Source: a virus. Taken from it: a stretch of 22,166 nucleotides of DNA. The stretch is from the UHGV virus genome UHGV-0117806. One strand, 5' to 3'. The notes under the pieces are model-generated. The model saw nothing but the letters and a program-made list of their open reading frames with translations. It had not been told where the DNA came from and did not search any database. Every line of letters starts with the position of its first letter. Positions within the stretch are counted from its first letter, which is position 1. Shown here piece by piece: positions 1,276 through 22,166 of the stretch. The position numbers and the translations under genes were made by a program.

Positions 1276-1996
1276 CCACTGCGGTGAGTAGCCAGCTCAC
1301 CGCGTGTGAATCCGGCTCATAACCACTGTAGCGAGTAGAACACCCTTCAGGTATGCACCCCAACCACTGTAGTGAGTAGAACACCATTCGGGTATGCACC
1401 CCAACCACTGTAGTGAGTAGAACACCATTCGGGTATGCACCCCAACCACTGTAGTGAGTAAAACACCATTCGGGTATGCACCCCAACCACTGTAGTGAGC
1501 AACCCCCCTGCCACGATATCAACTATCCACTGCAGTGAGTAAATTGGTGATTATCGGGGTCGCTATACACTGTAGTGAGTAAACAGGCGTTCACTGACTA
1601 CAAACAACCACTATAGAGAGTGATGGAATGCCCCCTCCAGCGGATATCCACTATGGAGAGTAAATCTTCGCTGTTTTAAACGGATATCCACTCACTACAG
1701 TGGATAGAGGTCAAGTCAGCCAATTCTGCTCTTCACAGTGGATAGTCAACAATGAGGAGAGCGACGATAACCGCTGTAGAGAGTAGACTTAACAGAGATA
1801 CCCAGTGACCGCTAACCTCTCAGCCCTTGTTTTATCTATGTTTGCAACCACTAACATTTACTTCGCGATTTGTGCGCACTGCCTACAGTGGTTATTCTTC
1901 GGTTTCTTTTACTCACTACAGTGGATATTGCATTTCCGATAAACAAAAAGGCTCACTACAGTAGATAGTGAGCCTTTTTACTCTCTACAGTGGTTG
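1276..1996. repeat. iteron array downstream of repA (about 17 copies of a CCACTGTAGTGAGTA-type core; incA-like control locus)
   Basis: Core copies at 1276, 1323, 1364, 1405, 1446, 1487, 1527, 1567, 1608, 1648, 1771 in direct orientation (1323-1501 are exact 41-bp tandem units); inverted copies (CTCACTACAGTGGATA) at about 1691, 1731, 1880, 1911, 1952, 1982. Confidence 0.85.
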
Positions 1997-1998
1997 GG

Positions 1999-3054
1999 CT
2001 ATTTGCGAGCCTTTGCCTTGCGCAGCTCTTCGAGAATCGCTAGTTCTTCCTTGCTCAACATGACCATTTCCCCGTCTTTTTCTTCAGGGGCAACATCGAT
2101 AATGTCCTCCGGATCATCACCTGGCAAAATATCTTCTGGCTCTTCAGGCGTAGCCATAGATGGCGGCAGTGCCGAACGTAACTTCGGCCGTCTATAGTGG
2201 ATGACGAAGTAGACCGAGCTGCCGCGTTTCACTTCAGTGTAATCGAGATAGCCGATCTCTCGCAGCTGCTCCATCGCCTTCCTGACTGTCGCATTCTGGG
2301 TAATGGTGCGGCTGGTTAAGTTAAGTCTGGCGCGTAAGCGAGCCAATGAGATTGGCGCCGGGTCTGGTGGCAAACTTTCAATGAAGGTGTAGAGCGCCTG
2401 CGCGGATTCTTTTCTGGAGAGTTCGTTGATGGCCCGAAGTTGCAAAAGCACCTTTTTGTCGAACTGGTAAAGTTCGAAAATCTTAGGATCGGCCTTCAGT
2501 TCGACCGTGTCATTCTTGGTACTGTACTTTGCCGTCTGCACAAGGTGCGTAACGTAATACTCTTCAGAGCCTTTGCTGCGGAATGAGATGGTGTTTGTGG
2601 CGATACGACTTAGAGAGCTGTCCAGGCGCTTACGTAACTTCGCGGACGATCTGGCTGTTGGTATGCCACAAAGTCTGACGAACTCGACGAACGGCAACGT
2701 GACGGTGTCACCAACAACCTTGTGCTTGGCGAACGCGTGGATGATGCCCACCCATGTTTTGAAATCGTTATCCATATCAAGACGAAGACCAGCAATCCTT
2801 ATATCCTCGTACCCTTCGGCTTTGGCCAGAGACAGCTGTTTGAGTTCAGCGGAGGCGTCCATAGAGACCATTTGCCCCTTTCTACCCCTGGATGTCGATT
2901 TCAGCGTCGGAACGAAGAGACCAAGACGCATCAGAGCAACAGGCTGAACTGTGTTGTTGGTGTTAGGAACTAACGTAACAACTTCGCCGGTCTTTTTGTC
3001 TGTTTCGGAAAATGCTTCGCTTATCGCAATGTTTTTATTGTCGTTTACGCTCAT
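1999..3054 (-). CDS. repA: iteron-binding replication initiator RepA (RepFIB / phage P1 RepA family)
   Basis: 351-aa ORF with blocks recognisable from RepFIB/P1 RepA ([58 protein letters not shown]); flanked on both sides by iterons. Confidence 0.92.
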
Positions 3055-3097: not shown

Positions 3098-3217
3098 ATT
3101 ACAGTGGATAGTAGCACCCATCACAGTGGTTATCCTACCGCCTACAGCGGTTTTTCTACTCTCCATAGTGGTTGATTTACTCTCTATAGTGGTTGTTATT
3201 CTCACTATAGTGGATAT
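3098..3217. repeat. iteron set 1 upstream of repA (6 copies, TACAGTGG-type orientation)
   Basis: ttACAGTGGATA 3100, tcACAGTGGTTA 3121, CTACAGCGG 3143, CTCCATAGTGG 3160, CTCTATAGTGG 3181, CTCACTATAGTGGATA 3201. Confidence 0.8.
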
Positions 3218-3254
3218 CGATAACCTCTAAAGCCATGTGGCACAACGGTTTGCA

Positions 3255-3335
3255 GGGGCCGGGGATCTCTTTGGGTCTTTGTGGTTCTCTTTGGTTCTAA
3301 CAGGGATCTGAATTACTGGATCGGGCCTGTGTATA
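3255..3335. other. candidate origin module 1 (GGGGATCTCT...TGGATCGGGCCTGTG; 3 GATC sites)
   Basis: GATC at 3264, 3305, 3319 in an AT-rich gene-free stretch between two iteron sets; diverged duplicate of 3636-3712. Confidence 0.45.
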
Positions 3336-3495
3336 AAAATCAGATAATTACAAAATCAGGCATCACTCCCCTTCTGGGGATAATGTGTGATCGAAATAAA
3401 CACGCCGCAACGCAAAATTTACAATATTTCCAAGAATATCAGCCATCTGCCGCAGAAAAACAGGCTCGGAGTTATCCAGTTAAAACATTGTCTCC

Positions 3496-3600
3496 TACTC
3501 ACTACAGTGGATACCGACTACTCTCCAGAGAGGTTGTTTTGCTCTTCATAGCGGTTATTATGCTCTCTACAGTGGTTATTTTGCTCCCTATAGTGGATAG
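3496..3600. repeat. iteron set 2 upstream of repA (5 copies)
   Basis: CTCACTACAGTGGATA 3498, CTCTCCAGAGAGG 3521, CTCTTCATAGCGG 3543, CTCTCTACAGTGG 3563, CTCCCTATAGTGGATAG 3583. Confidence 0.8.
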
Positions 3601-3635
3601 TAACCCCTTCTCAAGCCAGTAACCGCAAGCGCTGG

Positions 3636-3712
3636 AGACGATCGGGGATCTCTTTTGATCTTCTGTAGGATCTCTCTGGGGATCTAAATATTGGATCGGG
3701 CCTGTGAATAAA
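3636..3712. other. candidate origin module 2 (Dam-site cluster: 6 GATC within about 60 bp)
   Basis: GATC at 3640, 3647, 3657, 3669, 3681, 3694, followed by TGGATCGGGCCTGTG as in module 1. This density is far above chance and typical of Dam/SeqA-controlled origins. Confidence 0.5.
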
Positions 3713-3796
3713 GTGAATAAGTAAACAGGCATTTGCAAACTCCGGTGCGCCTTATCCGTTATCGTTGCCCCGGACAAAATTATTTGAACAAGAATT

Positions 3797-8739: not shown

Positions 8740-8912
8740 TTTGCTCTCTCTTAGGGACTGACGTCTGAATAGAACTTCGGCAATGAGAACATTCTGCTAT
8801 GAATGCCACTTTAAATAAATGTCTGGTATGCCTGATTTTTCCTTTTGCGTGTCTTTTCGCCTTAATGCAACTCTTCACATCATCATAGAATTTGAGACAA
8901 TTAAACAATTAA

Positions 8913-15239: not shown

Positions 15240-15809
15240 ATGGATGTGATGGAAACCCAGAACCAACAAACAAAACCTCTGAATAATGCTTATGCGTGGC
15301 TTCTAGCTTTACTGCCTCTCTTCTTTGGAGCACCGCCAGATGAGTATTTGAATTATGCAATAGTGATAGGTGGAGTCGCTGGACTCGGCTTTCTGGTGGC
15401 TGACAGAATGGCATTGTCTGATGCAGGGTATGAACCACCGGCCATCCTGTGGGGAGTATTTCTCCTTCCGGTCTATCTCTGGAAACGTGCCACCGTTACA
15501 AAAGGCAGTCGACTTCCTTTTATCGTAATCGTCGCGTTGCTTGCTGGTAACATCTTCATCGGTATCACACACCAGGAAGAGGTTGCTCTTGAAGAAGCGG
15601 CTTGTCCTCTCGTAACGACCATTCTGAAAGAGAATAACGGAACCACAGCGCCGAAATGTATGAAGGTGACAATTCAGGACAAGGTGACGGACAAGTTCTA
15701 TAAAGCGACGGCTACGCTGGATAACGGCAACGACATAAACGTTACTCTGGAACTGACCGGCGAAAGAAACTTTTATGTGCGCGTTCCGGATGCCTATCTG
15801 AACAACTAA
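15240..15809 (+). CDS. hypothetical membrane protein (189 aa; start 15240 or 15249)
   Basis: Two or three hydrophobic segments near the N-terminus (AYAWLLALLPLFFGA, AIVIGGVAGLGFLVA, ILWGVFLLPVYLW) then a soluble C-terminal domain. Confidence 0.6.
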   Translation: MDVMETQNQQTKPLNNAYAWLLALLPLFFGAPPDEYLNYAIVIGGVAGLGFLVADRMALSDAGYEPPAILWGVFLLPVYLWKRATVTKGSRLPFIVIVALLAGNIFIGITHQEEVALEEAACPLVTTILKENNGTTAPKCMKVTIQDKVTDKFYKATATLDNGNDINVTLELTGERNFYVRVPDAYLNN

Positions 15810-16883
15810 CGGCTGCAGCTCGTTGATATTGGCGGTCACAAATTGAGGATTTCTATAAGAGTCCGTTGATCGCCACTTTCCCCACCACCCTACCCCACTC
15901 AATCCCAGGCGTGACAAGGCATTTAAGCCAATTACACCCATAAGAAAACAAATAAATAACACATCAACGTAAAGTCAACGCTTTCCCCTGATTTGGTCTA
16001 AAAAGTTGATGTTTTCGCACGCCATCTCTTATACCCAAATCCAGCGTACCAGAATCCATCTCCCTGCGACCAAAACGTCAAAAACGACTCGTGATACCAC
16101 CCAAAAACAGACACGCTCAGAAGCGCTCCCGTTGCGTTATATTGGACATCTAAACAAGTTGTTTTCAGACACAAGAAAACAAGCTAACCACACCCACAGG
16201 AAACCCAGAGACGCCATTACCCACATTCCCAAAAACAACCAACCTCTTTATGGCAGGCTACTGAAAAGACCCACCTCTTCTTCCCAGGCTACCGGACAAC
16301 CAACCTAACTTTCACAGGCAACTCGAAACATTCATACATGCGATACCCACTATACGCCATTCCCCAAACAGCGAATAAACACCAGAACCACTGAAACTCT
16401 AACGAAGCCTGTTACCGCAAGGACTCCCTCAATCACCAAAGACACGAAACAGAACATTCGCGGGGAAACGCCATTACTCAATACACGAATAACCACAAAA
16501 GCCTTTCACGCTCTCAAGGTAAACAACTCAAATACAATAACGAAAGGAATCGCCCACCTGCCATTACTCCATACACAGAGAAGAACAATCACCAAAACAA
16601 CGAGAACAACCCTGACGAAAACACAGAGATTAATCACCTCAAGAAGAACGAAACCACATACGCCGGTAGAGAGTACAACCCACCCATTTCACCCACAGGA
16701 ATAGTCGCCGTATTGAGCGTTATCAGAGAGAAGGTTTATACCCACATAAGAGAGAAAATTCGTGGGAGGTATAAGTGGGAAGGGAAGGAGGGGTATCGCC
16801 ACTTTCTTCGTATAAATTCAAGCCATAGTTTTCGTCCCCCGTAACGTCCCTATCCACCCCTTCGGTCAGCCTTCGGGCCATCC

Positions 16884-17063
16884 AGGGAAAAGGCCATGTC
16901 CCTTTTCAGGAACGGGAACGTCGCCGCAGGGAAAAGGCTGGAGGTTTTTCAGGGAAACGGTGGGAATCCCGCTATACGAACCGGGAAAAGGCTGGCTGCC
17001 GGTCGGGAAACGGGTACATCCCGGTACAGAGTGAGAGACGACTGCGGGAGCAGTGCGGGAAAT
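16884..17063. repeat. array of about 7 direct GGGAAA(A/C)GG-type repeats
   Basis: CAGGGAAAAGG 16884, CAGGAACGGGA 16908, CAGGGAAAAGG 16927, CAGGGAAACGG 16950, CGGGAAAAGGC 16982, CGGGAAACGGG 17004, CGGGAAATC 17055; spacing 23-32 bp. Track ORF 16896..17339 here is non-protein-like. Confidence 0.6.
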
Positions 17064-17330
17064 CTTCGGGAGTGCGCCTTACTCTTCACTCGCCTGAAAA
17101 TCGCGGGGGAGTGTCATTCCCTCTCGTGCAGCTACTGGACTCCAGTCTGCCAGACCATCATCGGATCTCAAGCGATTTCAGTAGGTTTTCGGGGAGAAGG
17201 ATATTCTGCCCACCAGCCCCGCGGCGCGCGTAGAGCAGAATATCGTAAATACTGGCTCCCGTGTCGTTCCCGGATATTCACTGCCCAGCCTGGCTTTCCC
17301 GACATAAAATCCTTTTTCGCCTTTGTCTTA

Positions 17331-17368
17331 TTGCGATAATAACACCAACAAGTAAACAACATATTTAG
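17331..17368 (+). promoter_or_regulatory. conserved promoter module (TGcGATAAT + degenerate palindrome)
   Basis: TTGCGATAATAACACCAACAAGTAAACAACATATTTAG upstream of ATG 17399. Confidence 0.5.
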
Positions 17369-17398
17369 ACGTTATAGAAACGAAGTGAGGATGAAGAG

Positions 17399-17617
17399 AT
17401 GATTAAGATGCCTGTGACGGTTGAGGTGTGGGGCGTGGATTCCCTGGCTGAGTGTCTGGATGCAGTGGGGCCGGAGTTGTACCGCAAGTTGTGGTCGTTC
17501 GTCCCGGCAGAAGGGGAATCGCCCAAAGGGAAGGATATCTGGCACCTGCTTAGTGAAGATGAAAAGCGGGAGCTGGTGGACGCGGTACACAGCGAGTTCC
17601 CGGACGACGAAGATTAA
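17399..17617 (+). CDS. hypothetical small strongly acidic protein (72 aa)
   Basis: GTGAGG then ATG 17399; about 18 Asp/Glu versus 7 Lys/Arg by my count, ending …EFPDDED. Confidence 0.7.
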   Translation: MIKMPVTVEVWGVDSLAECLDAVGPELYRKLWSFVPAEGESPKGKDIWHLLSEDEKRELVDAVHSEFPDDED

Positions 17618-17688
17618 GAGTGAGACCACCAGCACGGTGGCTTTTGTCGCTATTAACCTCCGGGGCAGCGCAGCACCGTAACGATATA

Positions 17689-17746
17689 CTTTGTGGCCGT
17701 TTTCTTACTGGTATTGTTTACGCAATTCAGAAAACAACATGTTTAA
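17689..17746 (+). promoter_or_regulatory. conserved promoter-operator module, class II (TTGTGG…TGgTATTGT + AACATGTT palindrome)
   Basis: CTTTGTGGCCGTTTTCTTACTGGTATTGTTTACGCAATTCAGAAAACAACATGTTTAA; near-identical to the 18180-18236 module. Confidence 0.55.
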
Positions 17747-17756
17747 GGATTGCTTT

Positions 17757-18086
17757 ATGTTTGCAAATATCGACATCAACCAAATCAAGAAAATGACTCA
17801 AAAAGAGTTTGACCAGTTTTATGAGTTAGAAGGTTGGTCTTCCACGCTGATCAATTCGCGCTGGGTGCTTGAGCTGATGACTCGTGATGATGCTCCTGCT
17901 TTGATTATTTGCGACATGGGTGAAGATGCTGACTTTATGGATATGAGCGAATTTTGTGTGGACACATACAACCGCAGCCAGAAGTACTACTTCACATGCG
18001 ATAGCGAGAATGACGTGATTTCTAAGCTCTATCTTCACCTTGTCCAGCATTGGGACGTGCAGGAATTCCTTGAGTTATTCGCGTAA
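17757..18086 (+). CDS. hypothetical acidic protein (109 aa)
   Basis: AAGGA 17745-17749 then ATG 17757; followed by hairpin AAGCCAGC-accgcct-GCTGGCTT (18096-18118). Confidence 0.7.
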   Translation: MFANIDINQIKKMTQKEFDQFYELEGWSSTLINSRWVLELMTRDDAPALIICDMGEDADFMDMSEFCVDTYNRSQKYYFTCDSENDVISKLYLHLVQHWDVQEFLELFA

Positions 18087-18179
18087 GCCCAACCAAAGCC
18101 AGCACCGCCTGCTGGCTTAACTTCTCTGTAGCCGCAGGGAAGAACCACCTTTAGATAATTCATGTGCCTGAGCAATATG

Positions 18180-18236
18180 CTTTGTAGCCGTTTTTACACT
18201 GGTATTATTTACGCCATTGAGAAAACAATTTGTTTA
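18180..18236 (+). promoter_or_regulatory. conserved promoter-operator module, class II (TTGTAG…TGgTATTAT + AAACAATTTGTTT)
   Basis: CTTTGTAGCCGTTTTTACACTGGTATTATTTACGCCATTGAGAAAACAATTTGTTTA; palindrome 18223-18235, 12 nt before ATG 18247. Confidence 0.55.
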
Positions 18237-18246
18237 CGGAGTGGTG

Positions 18247-18558
18247 ATGAATACTTCATTGGTGCTGGGTCTTGCTGAAGGCCAGGAGAGAAAAGAAAAA
18301 CCAACCTTAATGGGGCATCTCACATTGCTGGATATCGTAGCGAATGGGACTTCTATCCGTCTGTTTCGTGAAAAAGCCATTACCTTCGACGCGGGCAATT
18401 TTACGCGCTATGTGATGGTAGTTCGTCGCCAGCGTGGAAGAGGGTGGATGTCGGTCCAGAAAATGTGGCCAGAGGACCAGCTTGAACTGGCGCTGATGGA
18501 AGCCAACCGTGTCGCCCAACAAGAGATCCAACGAGCGTCTGTTCAGGCGGTAGCTTAA
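18247..18558 (+). CDS. hypothetical basic protein (103 aa)
   Basis: GGAG then ATG 18247; Arg-rich (VMVVRRQRGRGW), unlike its acidic neighbours. Confidence 0.65.
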   Translation: MNTSLVLGLAEGQERKEKPTLMGHLTLLDIVANGTSIRLFREKAITFDAGNFTRYVMVVRRQRGRGWMSVQKMWPEDQLELALMEANRVAQQEIQRASVQAVA

Positions 18559-18593
18559 ACATGTGCAAGCAGTAGTTAGTCGAATGTACGACA

Positions 18594-18620
18594 GCCCCGC
18601 CAATCCTTCGGGGCTTTTTT
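18594..18620 (+). terminator. Rho-independent terminator
   Basis: GCCCCG-ccaatcctt-CGGGGC followed by TTTTTT. Confidence 0.75.
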
Positions 18621-18679
18621 GTATTGTAAGTACTTACTTATGATAATAAAATTAAAAATTAAACACTAAGGAGAGTGAA

Positions 18680-19075
18680 ATGACCGTTAAACGCGAAAAT
18701 CTGACCCTGGATATGTATTATGCATCAGAGACGGAAAATGGAGACAAAGTTGCAAAAATTACAATTGTGCTACGCGATAATGCCTCCGGCGAAGAAGTTC
18801 ACACCAGTACCTTAACTCGCACCGGCGAGGCGACAAAGGGGAAATATTCGGTGCGTTACCAAAGCATCAGTAATGCTTCTGACCCTTTACTGATAAAACT
18901 GGAAACTCATTTCCGTGGCGCGGATCAGACGTTGTTTGAAAATTTGATGAAAAAGGTCGATACGGTTTATACATCGAGTTTAAATACCAATAGTACCTGG
19001 ATGGGACAACACGGTCTGCGAATAATCTCCGGCGAAAAGATCGACACCATTGTCCCTGAAAGCGTATTCGCTTAA
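18680..19075 (+). CDS. hypothetical protein (131 aa)
   Basis: AAGGAG then ATG 18680; preceded by TGTAAGTACTTACTTA (18625-18640) and a TTGTAA-17-TAAAAT promoter-like pair; followed by terminator 19088-19110. Confidence 0.7.
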   Translation: MTVKRENLTLDMYYASETENGDKVAKITIVLRDNASGEEVHTSTLTRTGEATKGKYSVRYQSISNASDPLLIKLETHFRGADQTLFENLMKKVDTVYTSSLNTNSTWMGQHGLRIISGEKIDTIVPESVFA

Positions 19076-19087
19076 TCCTCTTTGAAT

Positions 19088-19110
19088 GGCGCGTAAACCG
19101 CGCCATTTTC
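19088..19110 (+). terminator. Rho-independent terminator
   Basis: GGCGCG-taaac-CGCGCC followed by ATTTTC; then palindrome AACAATTTGTT (19122-19132). Confidence 0.65.
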
Positions 19111-19192
19111 TTATGCCCGATAACAATTTGTTTTCTGCCTTATCTGATTTGTGAAAATGATTTCACTGAAGCAACTTAATAAGGAAACCATC

Positions 19193-19567
19193 ATGGGACT
19201 TGATATCTATATCGAGACGCAGCCTAAAAACGATCTGAATAACGAGGCATCCAGAAAGCAGGTTGCTTACTTCCGTAAGTTCAATGCGCTCGTTGGGTGG
19301 ATGGAGCGCAACGTAGGTGAAGTCGAAAATTGTGAGCTTTTAGAATTAACGATGAATGACATTTGTTTTCTGAAGACTCATTTGATGCACATAAACGAAA
19401 GTAATTGCGAAGAGTACTTGCCTACCCAGGAAGGTTTTTTCTTCGGCAGTCAGGAGTACGATGAAGGTTACTGGCATGACGTGGGGGAGTTGAAAGAGAT
19501 TGTGGAAGATCTGATTAAGAACCACGACTTTCACAATAATAGACTGACCTTCTGCGCCTGGTGGTAA
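19193..19567 (+). CDS. hypothetical acidic protein (124 aa)
   Basis: AAGGA 19181-19185 then ATG 19193. Confidence 0.7.
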   Translation: MGLDIYIETQPKNDLNNEASRKQVAYFRKFNALVGWMERNVGEVENCELLELTMNDICFLKTHLMHINESNCEEYLPTQEGFFFGSQEYDEGYWHDVGELKEIVEDLIKNHDFHNNRLTFCAWW

Positions 19568-19569
19568 AT

Positions 19570-19713
19570 ATGGGCGATTTCAAGAAACGCCTGAAGGAGA
19601 GAGCCGAGATGGTCAGAAAGCGAAACGCCTCTTCTGTCATAAGATACGCAAGGCAGTTTAGTCGCAACAACAAATCAGTTGAGGAAAAGATCCTTAGCGT
19701 AATCGGGCGATAA
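19570..19713 (+). CDS. possible small basic peptide (47 aa; alternative start 19609 gives 34 aa)
   Basis: Below track cutoff. ATG 19570 two nt after stop of 19193..19567; internal ATG 19609 has AAGGAG 9 nt upstream; ends just before hairpin 19719-19742. Confidence 0.3.
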   Translation: MGDFKKRLKERAEMVRKRNASSVIRYARQFSRNNKSVEEKILSVIGR

Positions 19714-19718
19714 TTATT

Positions 19719-19742
19719 AAGGCCACCAGCATTGGTGGTCTT
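19719..19742 (+). terminator. hairpin terminator AAGGCCACCAG-catt-GGTGGTCTT followed by AAATGAC
   Basis: Near-identical to hairpin 20190-20213 and related to 13819-13840. Confidence 0.6.
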
Positions 19743-19850
19743 AAATGACTTTTAATAACCGAAGGTTAGTTTGAAACCTGGCTATCAACTTCCAGAACCT
19801 TTCTTGTGTATTCAGCCTGTATTAACTTCTTTTATGCCTTATCTACACTG

Positions 19851-19883
19851 CGATAATTACACCAACAAGAAAACAATATGTTT
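19851..19883 (+). promoter_or_regulatory. conserved promoter-operator module (TGcGATAAT + AAACAATATGTTT)
   Basis: CGATAATTACACCAACAAGAAAACAATATGTTTACG, then GAGG and ATG 19897. Confidence 0.55.
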
Positions 19884-19896
19884 ACGCAGTGAGGAT

Positions 19897-20184
19897 ATGC
19901 TCATGACTGATTTCACCATTACCCCTAAAGCACAAAATGTATTCCTTGAATCATGGCTGGACTTGCCGGAAACAGAACAGCAAGAAATGGATCATGTGGA
20001 ATATGACGAGCAGGTAAGCACGCGATTCTTCCACTTTGAGGGCTGCGTTTACGACATTGCCGACTTCATGCGAGATGACCGCTTCCCTGAATGGCACGCA
20101 AGCTATCCACTAAACGCCTTCGCCATGCTGATGATCCGTGTGGATGATTCAGGGGATACCATCGACATCGGTCTGCTCCACTAA
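19897..20184 (+). CDS. hypothetical acidic protein (95 aa; start 19897 or 19903)
   Basis: GAGG 19891-19894 then ATG 19897. Confidence 0.65.
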   Translation: MLMTDFTITPKAQNVFLESWLDLPETEQQEMDHVEYDEQVSTRFFHFEGCVYDIADFMRDDRFPEWHASYPLNAFAMLMIRVDDSGDTIDIGLLH

Positions 20185-20189
20185 AGAGT

Positions 20190-20213
20190 AAGGCCACCAA
20201 TGCTGGTGGCCTT
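20190..20213 (+). terminator. hairpin terminator AAGGCCACCA-atgc-TGGTGGCCTT followed by AAATGAC
   Basis: Perfect 10-bp stem directly after stop of 19897..20184. Confidence 0.65.
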
Positions 20214-20334
20214 AAATGACCATCCTGTTTCCCGCAGGCTAAAAACACCAACCTCTTACCTCCAGGCAACCGACAAACCCACCTGTTCCCGTCCGGCTAC
20301 CGCAACTTTCCACTTTGACGCCTTATTCGTACAA

Positions 20335-20367
20335 CGATAATTAACACCAACAAGAAAACAATTTGTT
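20335..20367 (+). promoter_or_regulatory. conserved promoter-operator module (GATAAT + AAAACAATTTGTT)
   Basis: CGATAATTAACACCAACAAGAAAACAATTTGTTATTTA, then AAGGA and ATG 20389. Confidence 0.55.
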
Positions 20368-20388
20368 ATTTACGATAAGGAATTAATC

Positions 20389-20871
20389 ATGAATTTTATC
20401 GCTACTGTAAACGCACCCGCACATGGCAATATCGCTGTAACGTTCTCTGATATTGAAAAACGAGTACTTGGTGCATGGCGCGACAATGAGACGGTAGAAC
20501 TGTCAGCACAAGAAAAATGCATTATTGCACGCGACATCATTTGCAATCGTCGTTACTCACGGGTAATTGAGAAAGCGTATGTCGCAAATTCTGGCTTCGG
20601 AACATTTGTCTTCCCGGTGCGCTCCGGGCGATTCTGCCAGTCCAAGCTGATTGAGTTCGCTACGCAGATTTCTGTCTGGATTAAAACTCAATCGTCGTTC
20701 AAATTTTCCGACGATGAAGCAGTATCGCAGGGGATGCGGATCGCCAACAATGCGATAAAATGCAAAAACATTACGTATGCCGCTGGCGTTGACACATGGA
20801 AACTGTTTTGCGCTAACTTTATGCTGAATGTATACGCAAGCAACCGCATCCACATCCTTGATGGCGTGTAA
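20389..20871 (+). CDS. hypothetical protein (160 aa)
   Basis: AAGGA then ATG 20389; followed by hairpin GGGCCAGAAACGGCCC + TTTCTCT (20881-20903). Confidence 0.7.
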   Translation: MNFIATVNAPAHGNIAVTFSDIEKRVLGAWRDNETVELSAQEKCIIARDIICNRRYSRVIEKAYVANSGFGTFVFPVRSGRFCQSKLIEFATQISVWIKTQSSFKFSDDEAVSQGMRIANNAIKCKNITYAAGVDTWKLFCANFMLNVYASNRIHILDGV

Positions 20872-20920
20872 CTGAGAAGAGGGCCAGAAACGGCCCTTTC
20901 TCTATAGCCACCAGCTGCCG

Positions 20921-21036
20921 CAGGGAAATTTTCAGAAACGGCGAGGAACGCATTCATGAGCCGACGGGAAACGGCCAAGATTTTTTCGGGAAACGGCGGG
21001 GGTCGCCTTTATGTAGAAAACTGAGCGGGAGAAACC
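20921..21036. repeat. second, shorter array of GGGAAA(A/C)GG-type repeats
   Basis: CAGGGAAATTT 20921, CGGGAAACGGC 20966, CGGGAAACGGC 20987, CGGGAGAAACC 21026; same motif as 16884-17063. Confidence 0.55.
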
Positions 21037-21470
21037 CGGAATCGCGCCAGAAATTGCGTAGCGGCGCTGGGGTAGCGCTGGTGGGGTTTCAGCCCCTGGG
21101 CCATCCAGATAGCTTTCGCTATGTGATTATGTGAATCCGTGGGTAAATCACTGTAAGCGCGTACACGTTGCCCAACGTGGCAATCATATGCGAGCGGATA
21201 CAAAACAACACAAAGAGCCGATCCGCGCCGACAAATAAACGCGGATCACATAGCAAGACTAAAAGCCAATGATTAACCATACTCTATAGCGCAATATAAC
21301 GCGTTTTAAGCGCGTTAATGTGTTAAGTAATGGGTATGTACTGACAAGGATATAAAAGCGCGTCTATGGCGTTATTTTGGTGCTTATTTTTATGTTGTTG
21401 GAGCGAGTTAAAGACAATAAAAAACGCGCCAATGATGGCGCGTTATGGTGGGAGTATTGGAAACGAAAAA

Positions 21471-21489
21471 AGCGCCCATAGTGGGCGCT
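21471..21489. repeat. 19-bp hairpin AGCGCCCA-tag-TGGGCGCT (copy 1)
   Basis: Identical copy at 21736-21754; the two flank the small minus-strand gene. This copy has A/T runs on both sides (terminator-like in both orientations). Confidence 0.6.
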
Positions 21490-21494
21490 CGATT

Positions 21495-21716
21495 TTATTT
21501 GTGTAAACTAATTTTGAATCCCATTTCTACAAACGCTTTTAACATTAAAAATATATCAGCGTCATTCACGTCTGCTTTTTTTCGCTCCTGGTCGTTCAAT
21601 AAGTCAATTTTGCGCGTTGTTTCATTTATAAACTCGACTGCGCGCCCAGCGATCCCAGCGATGCGATTAACATAATATTCATTATGGACGTTAACGCCAG
21701 CGATAAGAACAAACAT
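21495..21716 (-). CDS. hypothetical small protein (73 aa)
   Basis: Minus-strand SD AAGGAG 7 nt before ATG at 21716; flanked by identical 19-bp hairpins. Confidence 0.55.
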   Translation of the reverse strand: MFVLIAGVNVHNEYYVNRIAGIAGRAVEFINETTRKIDLLNDQERKKADVNDADIFLMLKAFVEMGFKISLHK

Positions 21717-21735
21717 GATTAAGCTCCTTAAAACT

Positions 21736-21754
21736 AGCGCCCATAGTGGGCGCT
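21736..21754. repeat. 19-bp hairpin AGCGCCCA-tag-TGGGCGCT (copy 2)
   Basis: Identical to 21471-21489; sits just upstream of the small gene's SD on the minus strand. Confidence 0.6.
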
Positions 21755-21798
21755 ATATCCATCTAATTACGCTTTGAAAGTATCAGCCAGATAGTTAT

Positions 21799-22166
<368 letters not shown>

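Follow-up and report, generated by a model that had tools for sequence, protein, structure and literature searches.

Two conserved arrays of phased GGGAAAMGG direct repeats in SSU5-type phage-plasmids: candidate docking sites for a DNA-binding protein

The virus genome UHGV-0117806, a stretch of 22,166 nucleotides referred to here as the window, carries two non-coding loci in which the short motif GGGAAAMGG (M, A or C) recurs on one strand. What purpose could two such arrays serve, and do they act as DNA or as RNA? Since the region around the arrays matches SSU5-like phages and plasmids in PLSDB, the window is part of an SSU5-type phage-plasmid (Salmonella phage SSU5). In these elements, the arrays belong to the backbone and form a conserved set of same-strand direct repeats in two parts.

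Seven exact copies of GGGAAAMGG were identified in the window, all on the plus strand. Only 0.34 copies are expected by chance, and none of 100 shuffled sequences reached seven. With one mismatch allowed, 17 motif-like sites compare with 9 expected; the signal is lost in the background, and therefore only the clustered copies matter. The two loci of direct repeats described in an earlier, sequence-only reading of the window are thus real. The copy numbers given there (seven and four) are reached only if degenerate copies are included; the exact copies number five in array 1 and two in array 2. The reported spacing of 23-32 bp was incorrect: start-to-start distances are 22, 22, 23, 31, and 22 bp in array 1 and 22 bp in the core of array 2 (Table 1). 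The extended consensus of array 1 is Y-M-GGGAAAMGG-C-Y-R. Its degenerate copy, CAGGAACGG at 16907, reads CAGAAACGG in relatives, while GGGAAATCT at 17057, formerly counted as the seventh copy, is probably no member of the array. The proximal pair of array 2 is located inside a highly conserved block, CCACCAGCTGCCGCAGGGAAATTTTCAGAAACGG, with identities of 0.9-1.0 across relatives. The complete genome of SSU5 (103,299 bp) contains six exact motifs, all on the plus strand and only in two homologous clusters.

The array region shares 71-84% identity with Salmonella phage SSU5, Escherichia phages Cyrano, PhiR41_1, and CMS-2020a, and several Klebsiella phage-plasmids. Plasmids matching the region around the arrays (100-240 kb) are held by 210 complete E. 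coli genomes. In PLSDB, 718 plasmids match the array-1 region, nearly all of them non-mobilisable and about 100-120 kb in size; they originate from at least 10 enterobacterial genera, including Klebsiella, Escherichia, Enterobacter, Salmonella, Citrobacter, and Cronobacter. None of the public records is collinear with the whole 22 kb of the window. Among E. coli records, the array region is matched most closely (99.7%) by NZ_AP027577.1 (L001, L319), also the best partial match to the window, a 214-kb mosaic plasmid composed of SSU5-like and P1-like segments (C1 repressor, Ref, Lpa), with genes for cellulose synthase and dimethyl sulfoxide reductase and many insertion sequence (IS) elements. 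The arrays of this plasmid are intact, though its SSU5-type terminase is truncated by IS5.

The arrays are present in 12 phages and 718 plasmids. Absence from related replicons, which the sequence-only reading would have held against a function, was not observed: the arrays are kept across the whole SSU5 family. A divergent lineage (L019, L032, L079, L089, and L113) has almost no DNA similarity to the window, yet possesses both arrays, the compositionally skewed gap upstream of array 1 and a similar run of small genes between the arrays.

A scan of IMG/VR with the repeat pattern yielded 108 loci, most of them SSU5-like, which gave 47 non-redundant sequences of array 1 and 62 of array 2. The distances between neighbouring copies were 22 bp (78 cases), 31 bp (28), 44 bp (29), and seven others in array 1, and 22 bp (60 cases) and 34 bp (13) in array 2. 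Certain lineages have four exact copies at exactly 22 bp; others lack one 22-bp unit in comparison with their relatives. The arrays grow and shrink by whole 22-bp units, and the spacers drift while the motif positions are held. Among 46 homologues of array 1, identity was 0.85 in motif columns versus 0.68 in spacers, with one of 42 shifted registers performing as well. The corresponding values for 61 homologues of array 2 were 0.997 and 0.78, a contrast matched by none of 60 shifted registers.

A sample independent of the motif was obtained by drawing loci via the neighbouring 160-amino-acid (aa) protein (n = 79). Array 2, scored when one or more exact copies lay no more than 300 nt downstream of the gene for this protein, was present in 75 of these loci, 62 of which had both copies. 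Array 1, with copies 2-4.6 kb upstream, was detected in 62 of the 70 loci with enough upstream sequence. The arrays are 2.9-4.5 kb apart (median 3.2 kb), and only nine exact plus-strand copies are located outside both of them in all 79 loci. The non-homologous IMG/VR matches to the pattern were dismissed as coding or tandem repeats with periods of 7, 12, or 21 bp. Among the matches listed in a pattern scan of 185,579 species genomes, there were only chance pairs in unrelated phyla. No mention of the motif, or of repeats in this region, was found in the literature.

Could the repeats lack a function of their own, being slippage products or relics in a non-coding spacer? The whole-unit insertions and deletions (indels) do indicate that slippage or unequal recombination occurs. 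Against this explanation, the motif is held while the spacers diverge, the same layout is seen in the lineage with almost no DNA similarity, and hundreds of isolates have kept 1.6 kb of non-coding DNA in a compact phage genome. We regard this explanation as hardly credible.

Array 1 is located at the end of this 1.6-kb gap, which is kept in every relative, and array 2 inside a second, conserved gap of 0.6 kb. The open reading frames (ORFs) annotated in the first gap vary between records, none of them is conserved, and 16-32% of the indels are multiples of three. A coding role of the gap was rejected: the ORF at 16896-17339 is spurious, the other ORFs are unconserved, and the indels do not come in threes. 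According to the sequence-only reading, each array is positioned between a terminator and the next module. This holds for array 2, which starts about 20 nt after an intrinsic terminator hairpin (20874-20902) displaying compensatory changes in relatives (GGGCC/GGCCC in the window versus GGGGC/GCCCC in SSU5). For array 1 it does not: no canonical terminator was found before it, and an 820-bp C-rich, G-poor stretch occupies this place instead. The same A/C-rich skew is present in the divergent lineage (L032). The RNA folding of the stretch is not unusual. By its composition, the stretch could serve as an oversized Rho-utilisation region; it also holds conserved repeat families. Both arrays are shielded from incoming transcription, array 2 by the hairpin upstream and by the terminators of convergent genes downstream.

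Three motif families are common to both gaps: the GGGAAAMGG arrays, a 20-nt element (16866 and 21089), and the core of GCCATTAC. Additionally, GTTGAT/ATCAAC motifs occur near the start of the first gap. In a 7-mer cluster scan of SSU5, the only repeat-dense loci were the RepA origin and the two gaps. Within positions 15500-22166 of the window, one sigma-70-type promoter-like site was counted versus 9.7 expected, and 20 terminator-like hairpins versus 7.3 expected.

At the RNA level, the arrays might be transcribed, for instance during the lytic cycle, and form an unstructured platform of GGA sites that sequesters host CsrA, for example, or is bound by a phage factor. All copies share the plus strand with the coding sequences of all neighbouring genes. 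GGA is present in each unit, often within AGGGA, and a CsrA dimer is able to bridge sites at a spacing of 22 nt. However, half of the sites read CGGGA rather than ARGGA, and the strict 22-bp phasing with unit-sized indels is not expected of an RNA sponge. Array 2 starts 20 nt past the conserved terminator, leaving no space for a promoter. No consistent fit to sigma-70, sigma-54, ECF-type, or T7-like promoters was seen by eye inside the arrays. A known or structured RNA was rejected on three counts. Namely, Rfam searches at a permissive threshold gave nothing relevant for the arrays; RNAalifold found no consensus structure on either strand of array 1 (-4.2 and -1.0 kcal/mol) and only the upstream terminator at array 2; and both arrays fold worse than shuffled sequences (z = +0.93 and +1.15). 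In RNA-seq data from E. coli LF82 lysogens of phage Cyrano (PMC9928086, S1 table), CYRAN_103, which corresponds to the A/C-rich stretch, is at the detection floor. CYRAN_104, which lies over array 1, stays low throughout the five conditions, while the first gene downstream reaches log2 values of up to 7.8 (PMC9928086, S1 table). The features of a CsrB-like sponge RNA, that is, an own promoter and terminator, GGA in hairpin loops and an abundant transcript, are not apparent in the sequence analyses or in the lysogen data. A function as RNA is very improbable.

The lack of RNA structure, of an Rfam match and of notable transcription in lysogens favours a function on double-stranded DNA. The earlier suggestion that the arrays are protein-binding direct repeats is supported by their same-strand orientation, 22-bp phasing, stronger conservation of motifs than of spacers, and the lack of coding potential and RNA structure. 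The array unit comprises 22 bp, or about two helical turns, with a conserved core of 9-13 bp and a free spacer. Very likely, therefore, a sequence-specific protein encoded by the element docks on the DNA of the arrays at phased sites, which would act as double-stranded DNA, roughly on one face of the helix.

Which process such a protein would serve is less clear. Our preferred reading, held tentatively and with less than even confidence, is an iteron-like two-part site for replication or copy control, separate from the RepFIB-type origin. It is favoured because the units have a 22-bp format, indels comprise whole units, the layout has two loci, the gap is rich in repeats, and the phage replication genes lack a known origin. 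Classical iterons combine a unit of 22 bp with a short core, and direct repeats with about 22-bp phasing are indeed present in the arrays. The SSU5 family encodes a helicase, a primase, the alpha subunit of DNA polymerase III (Pol III alpha), and a ligase, and no origin has been assigned to them. In the proposed mechanism, the binder would load cooperatively on array 1 within the 1.6-kb repeat-rich region, the array-1-bound protein would bridge to array 2 by looping, and the site would serve the phage replication genes (DnaB-like helicase, primase, Pol III alpha).

The appearance of an iteron origin in the same element can be judged from an internal control. The sequence-only reading saw no initiator gene in the window; this was mistaken, as a Rep_3 family RepA is encoded at 1999-3054 on the minus strand. 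Iterons flank it on one side and a set of tandem repeats on the other, and two near-duplicate blocks carry GATC clusters and DnaA-like boxes. Together, these elements (1321-1499, 1999-3054, and 3100-3720; 1.3-3.7 kb) make up a complete RepFIB-type plasmid origin. The arrays were rejected as RepA iterons, the RepA core ACAGTGG being unrelated to GGGAAAMGG. The iterons thus differ from the array motif, and therefore the arrays lie outside the plasmid replicon and RepA is no obvious partner.

Several observations weigh against a role in replication. No rep-like gene is located beside either array, and RepA is 14 kb away with other iterons. DnaA boxes, the consensus of integration host factor (IHF), and a GATC cluster are absent at the arrays, which, with 58-61% G+C, are not adjoined by an AT-rich unwinding element either; such features are seen at the element's own oriV (3.1-3.7 kb). 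The orientation of Chi sites in SSU5 flips at RepA and not at the arrays. All homologues are related by descent, so that the conservation of spacing is partly inherited. The expression data are from lysogens, and a partner search among proteins of the element gave no binding protein for the arrays.

Chi sites (GCTGGTGG) are abundant in general: 13 occur in the window (148-21077) versus about 0.7 expected, and 31 in SSU5 versus about 3. Several of them reside in terminator hairpins (17626, 19723, 20202). Array 2 is flanked by two (20908 on the minus strand, 21077 on the plus strand), and one follows array 1 (17210, minus). All Chi sites at 47-59 kb of SSU5 are on the minus strand, and those at 63-95 kb are mostly on the plus strand; Chi orientation was discarded as an origin marker for the arrays, its switch falling at RepA.

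A second function on DNA is plasmid partition. The sequence-only reading was correct that the window contains no partition gene. A ParF-like ParA with a small partner is, however, encoded elsewhere in SSU5; beyond the two arrays, SSU5 holds no further clusters of the motif. The arrays may be considered as partition sites of this type Ib system, in which the 96-aa partner (SSU5_034) would coat the repeats at both loci and ParA (SSU5_033, 221 aa) would segregate the resulting complexes. The ParF-like ParA (PDB 4dzz, E = 5e-11) is present in 11 of 12 SSU5-like phages. The partner, with its basic N-terminal tail, matches a ribbon-helix-helix (RHH) family below threshold (aCcr1, E = 1e-4) and may be an RHH protein. 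No repeat array adjoins the par operon (SSU5_033/034; L009, 30497-31521), and SSU5 is dense in repeats nowhere but in the two gaps and at the RepA origin. The shielding of the arrays from transcription fits a partition site, as does a 70-kb derivative without virion genes, which still has both arrays and ParA.

In type Ib centromeres, short repeats are arrayed with fixed spacers, and in the phage-plasmid N15 the centromere sites are scattered away from the partition genes. The SSU5-type arrays resemble those of TP228 (parH), pB171 (parC1/parC2), pTAR (parS), and N15 in having short repeats at fixed spacing, which in these systems sometimes occupy two or more loci. They differ in several respects. 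As a rule, a type Ib centromere lies beside its par operon and also serves as the operator, whereas the arrays are about 60 kb from the operon in SSU5 and GGGAAAMGG is absent upstream of parA. The 7-mer cluster scan is blind to boxes of 4-6 bp, and four TCAC-type boxes do occur upstream of parA. The RHH assignment of the partner is weak. RHH partners usually bind contiguous units of 7-11 bp, unlike a 9-bp core every 22 bp, and the centromere sites of N15 are palindromes while the SSU5-type repeats are asymmetric. This asymmetry also distinguishes the arrays from the palindromic ParB/SopB boxes of type Ia systems (parS/sopC), for which no parAB genes were found in the window. A putative ParB at the left end of the window was discarded, its frame being full of stops. 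Sodalis phage phiSG1 was likewise of no use as a guide to a ParA-family centromere: the partner protein in this phage is no homologue, and the search turned up Rep iterons only. A remote centromere is unlikely in absolute terms, yet nearly as plausible as the replication reading.

It is possible, at less than even odds, that the repeat-rich, strand-skewed 1.6-kb gap with array 1, together with array 2, represents either an unmapped vegetative origin and control locus with an initiator of a new kind among the unannotated proteins, or a distant two-part ParF centromere 60 kb from its genes.

The genes between the arrays suggest a third possibility. A phage regulator could bind both arrays cooperatively and loop out the intervening 3-4-kb block of small early-type genes, thereby silencing or insulating it in the lysogen. 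The arrays flank a conserved gene block in every lineage, and the gene order of this seven-gene module is the same in the divergent lineage L032. The depletion of sigma-70-like promoters around the arrays suggests special transcriptional control, and regulators are encoded nearby in relatives (a FljA-family protein, E = 3e-81, and a helix-turn-helix protein). Lambda CI bridges OL and OR, and the arrays resemble these operators in having several sites 20-24 bp apart (22-24 bp in the arrays) at two loci a few kilobases from each other, with a gene block between them. However, lambda operators are near-palindromes over divergent promoters, whereas the SSU5-type sites are asymmetric direct repeats and no promoter overlaps with either array. 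Some 310 bp separate the end of array 1 from the first operator-like motif beyond it; array 2 comes after a terminator and has no plus-strand gene in front of it. Moreover, the genes of the block carry a different, palindromic motif, AAACA-N3-TGTTT, which is a more obvious operator. Control by looping is rather improbable.

This palindrome is part of the motif AAGAAAACAANNTGTTTA, which occurs nine times in the window versus 0.06 expected (up to three mismatches), at 8911, 10114, 14533 (minus), 14581, 16151 (minus), 17350, 17728, 18219, and 19867. It is also present upstream of SSU5 parA (L009, 30445-30462). Nearly all copies are 10-30 nt upstream of start codons of small plus-strand genes; one inverted copy lies inside the 1.6-kb gap and is kept in all relatives. 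In appearance, the motif suggests an operator for a phage repressor that acts globally, or else a promoter or translational operator common to these genes.

The seven proteins of the module had no match in Pfam or NCBIfam and were assigned only to PHROG families of unknown function. Five of them are acidic. The two basic ones, of 103 aa (18247-18558) and 160 aa (20389-20871, adjoining array 2), are universal in the family, and their protein families are confined to SSU5-type elements. An additional 47-aa ORF (19570-19713, plus strand) encodes a very basic product (pI about 11), which is 100% identical to Cyrano CYRAN_109, absent from SSU5 and Klebsiella relatives, and without a match in Pfam (above threshold) or PHROGs. 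Few Cyrano genes are expressed clearly above background in lysogens, CYRAN_109 among them (PMC9928086).

To the right of array 2, relatives encode SSU5_121 (L010, 46897-47343, minus strand; outside the window), the FljA-family regulator identified with Pfam. Members of this family are repressors of phase-1 flagellin, a possible hint that the phage-plasmid regulates the flagellin of its host. In the window, an IS5-family fragment (about 21946-22128) truncates this region.

Table 1. Positions of the repeat arrays and of other sequence features in the window.
Feature	Position	Strand	Remarks
Array 1	16885..17013	+	exact sites 16885, 16929, 16952, 16983, 17005; degenerate CAGGAACGG at 16907-16915
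Seventh copy of the sequence-only reading, GGGAAATCT	17057..17065	+	identity to window about 0.2-0.4 across relatives
Array 2, proximal pair	20923..20941	+	degenerate GGGAAATTT at 20923 and CAGAAACGG at 20933, 10 bp apart
Array 2, core	20966..20996	+	two exact GGGAAACGG sites (20966, 20988), 22 bp apart
First gap, 1.6 kb	15810..17398	.	non-coding; array 1 at its 3' end; kept in every relative
A/C-rich, G-poor stretch upstream of array 1	15880..16700	+	A 37%, C 32%, G 14%, T 17%
Second repeat family, GCCATTACYC	16213..16569	+	four copies: 16213, 16356, 16470, 16560
Third repeat family	16235..16328	+	three 31-bp direct repeats (ACCAACCTCTT..CAGGCTAC); same repeat in SSU5
G-rich block directly upstream of array 1	16768..16845	+	very conserved; GGTATAAGTGGGAAGGGAAGGAGGGGTATCGCC ... 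ATTCAAG ... CCCCCGTAAC
20-nt element TCAGCCTTCGGGCCATCCAG	16866..16885	+	abuts array 1; second copy at 21089-21108
20-nt element, second copy TCAGCCCCTGGGCCATCCAG	21089..21108	+	downstream of array 2
Inverted copy of GCCATTAC core	21327..21333	-	second gap; GTAATGG on plus strand; invariant in 8 genomes
Second gap, 0.6 kb	20872..21494	.	conserved non-coding; between convergent genes; array 2 inside
Intrinsic terminator hairpin	20874..20902	+	after 160-aa gene, upstream of array 2
Terminators of convergent genes	21248-21219, 21444-21423, 21490-21470	-	downstream of array 2
Module of seven small genes	17399..20871	+	between arrays; proteins of 72, 109, 103, 131, 124, 93, 160 aa; plus 47-aa ORF
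Rep_3 RepA	1999-3054	-	RepFIB-type
RepA iterons	3100-3215, 3495-3600		21 bp, core ACAGTGG
Four 41-bp tandem repeats	1321-1499		97% identical; each with inverted ACAGTGG iteron core

Klebsiella, E. coli, Enterobacter, and Salmonella commonly harbour SSU5-type phage-plasmids, which carry resistance and accessory genes. Beyond the RepFIB-type origin, the cis-acting sites of these elements (vegetative origin, centromere, switch region) are unmapped, and the arrays with their unusually large non-coding surroundings are the strongest candidates for such a site. Experiments on binding, stability, incompatibility, and marker frequency could be aimed at them directly. Should the arrays titrate a factor for replication or partition, cloned copies could be used to cure or destabilise SSU5-type plasmids. 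Either a vegetative origin or a remote centromere, if true, would be a new class of cis-acting element in a clinically widespread plasmid family.

Among known systems, the iterons of P1 (incC/incA), RepFIB, RK2, and R6K share with the arrays the same-strand period of about 22 bp, a core with a free spacer and copy-number variation by whole units, as well as a second, smaller cluster kilobases away and the possibility of pairing between the two. The arrays differ from them in being without an adjoining rep gene, DnaA boxes, an AT-rich element, or a GATC cluster. The ori/crr pair of satellite phage P4 is alike in another way: this phage-plasmid also has two clusters of one short motif, about 4 kb apart, with possible joint action in cis. 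The distance between the SSU5-type arrays is in keeping with this arrangement. In P4, the alpha primase-helicase binds repeats that lie in either orientation, whereas all SSU5-type copies point the same way, helicase and primase are encoded by distinct genes, and protein binding is a proposal. Phased direct repeats bound by a protein are thus familiar as a kind, and the SSU5-type instance lacks defining features of each specific family with which it was compared.

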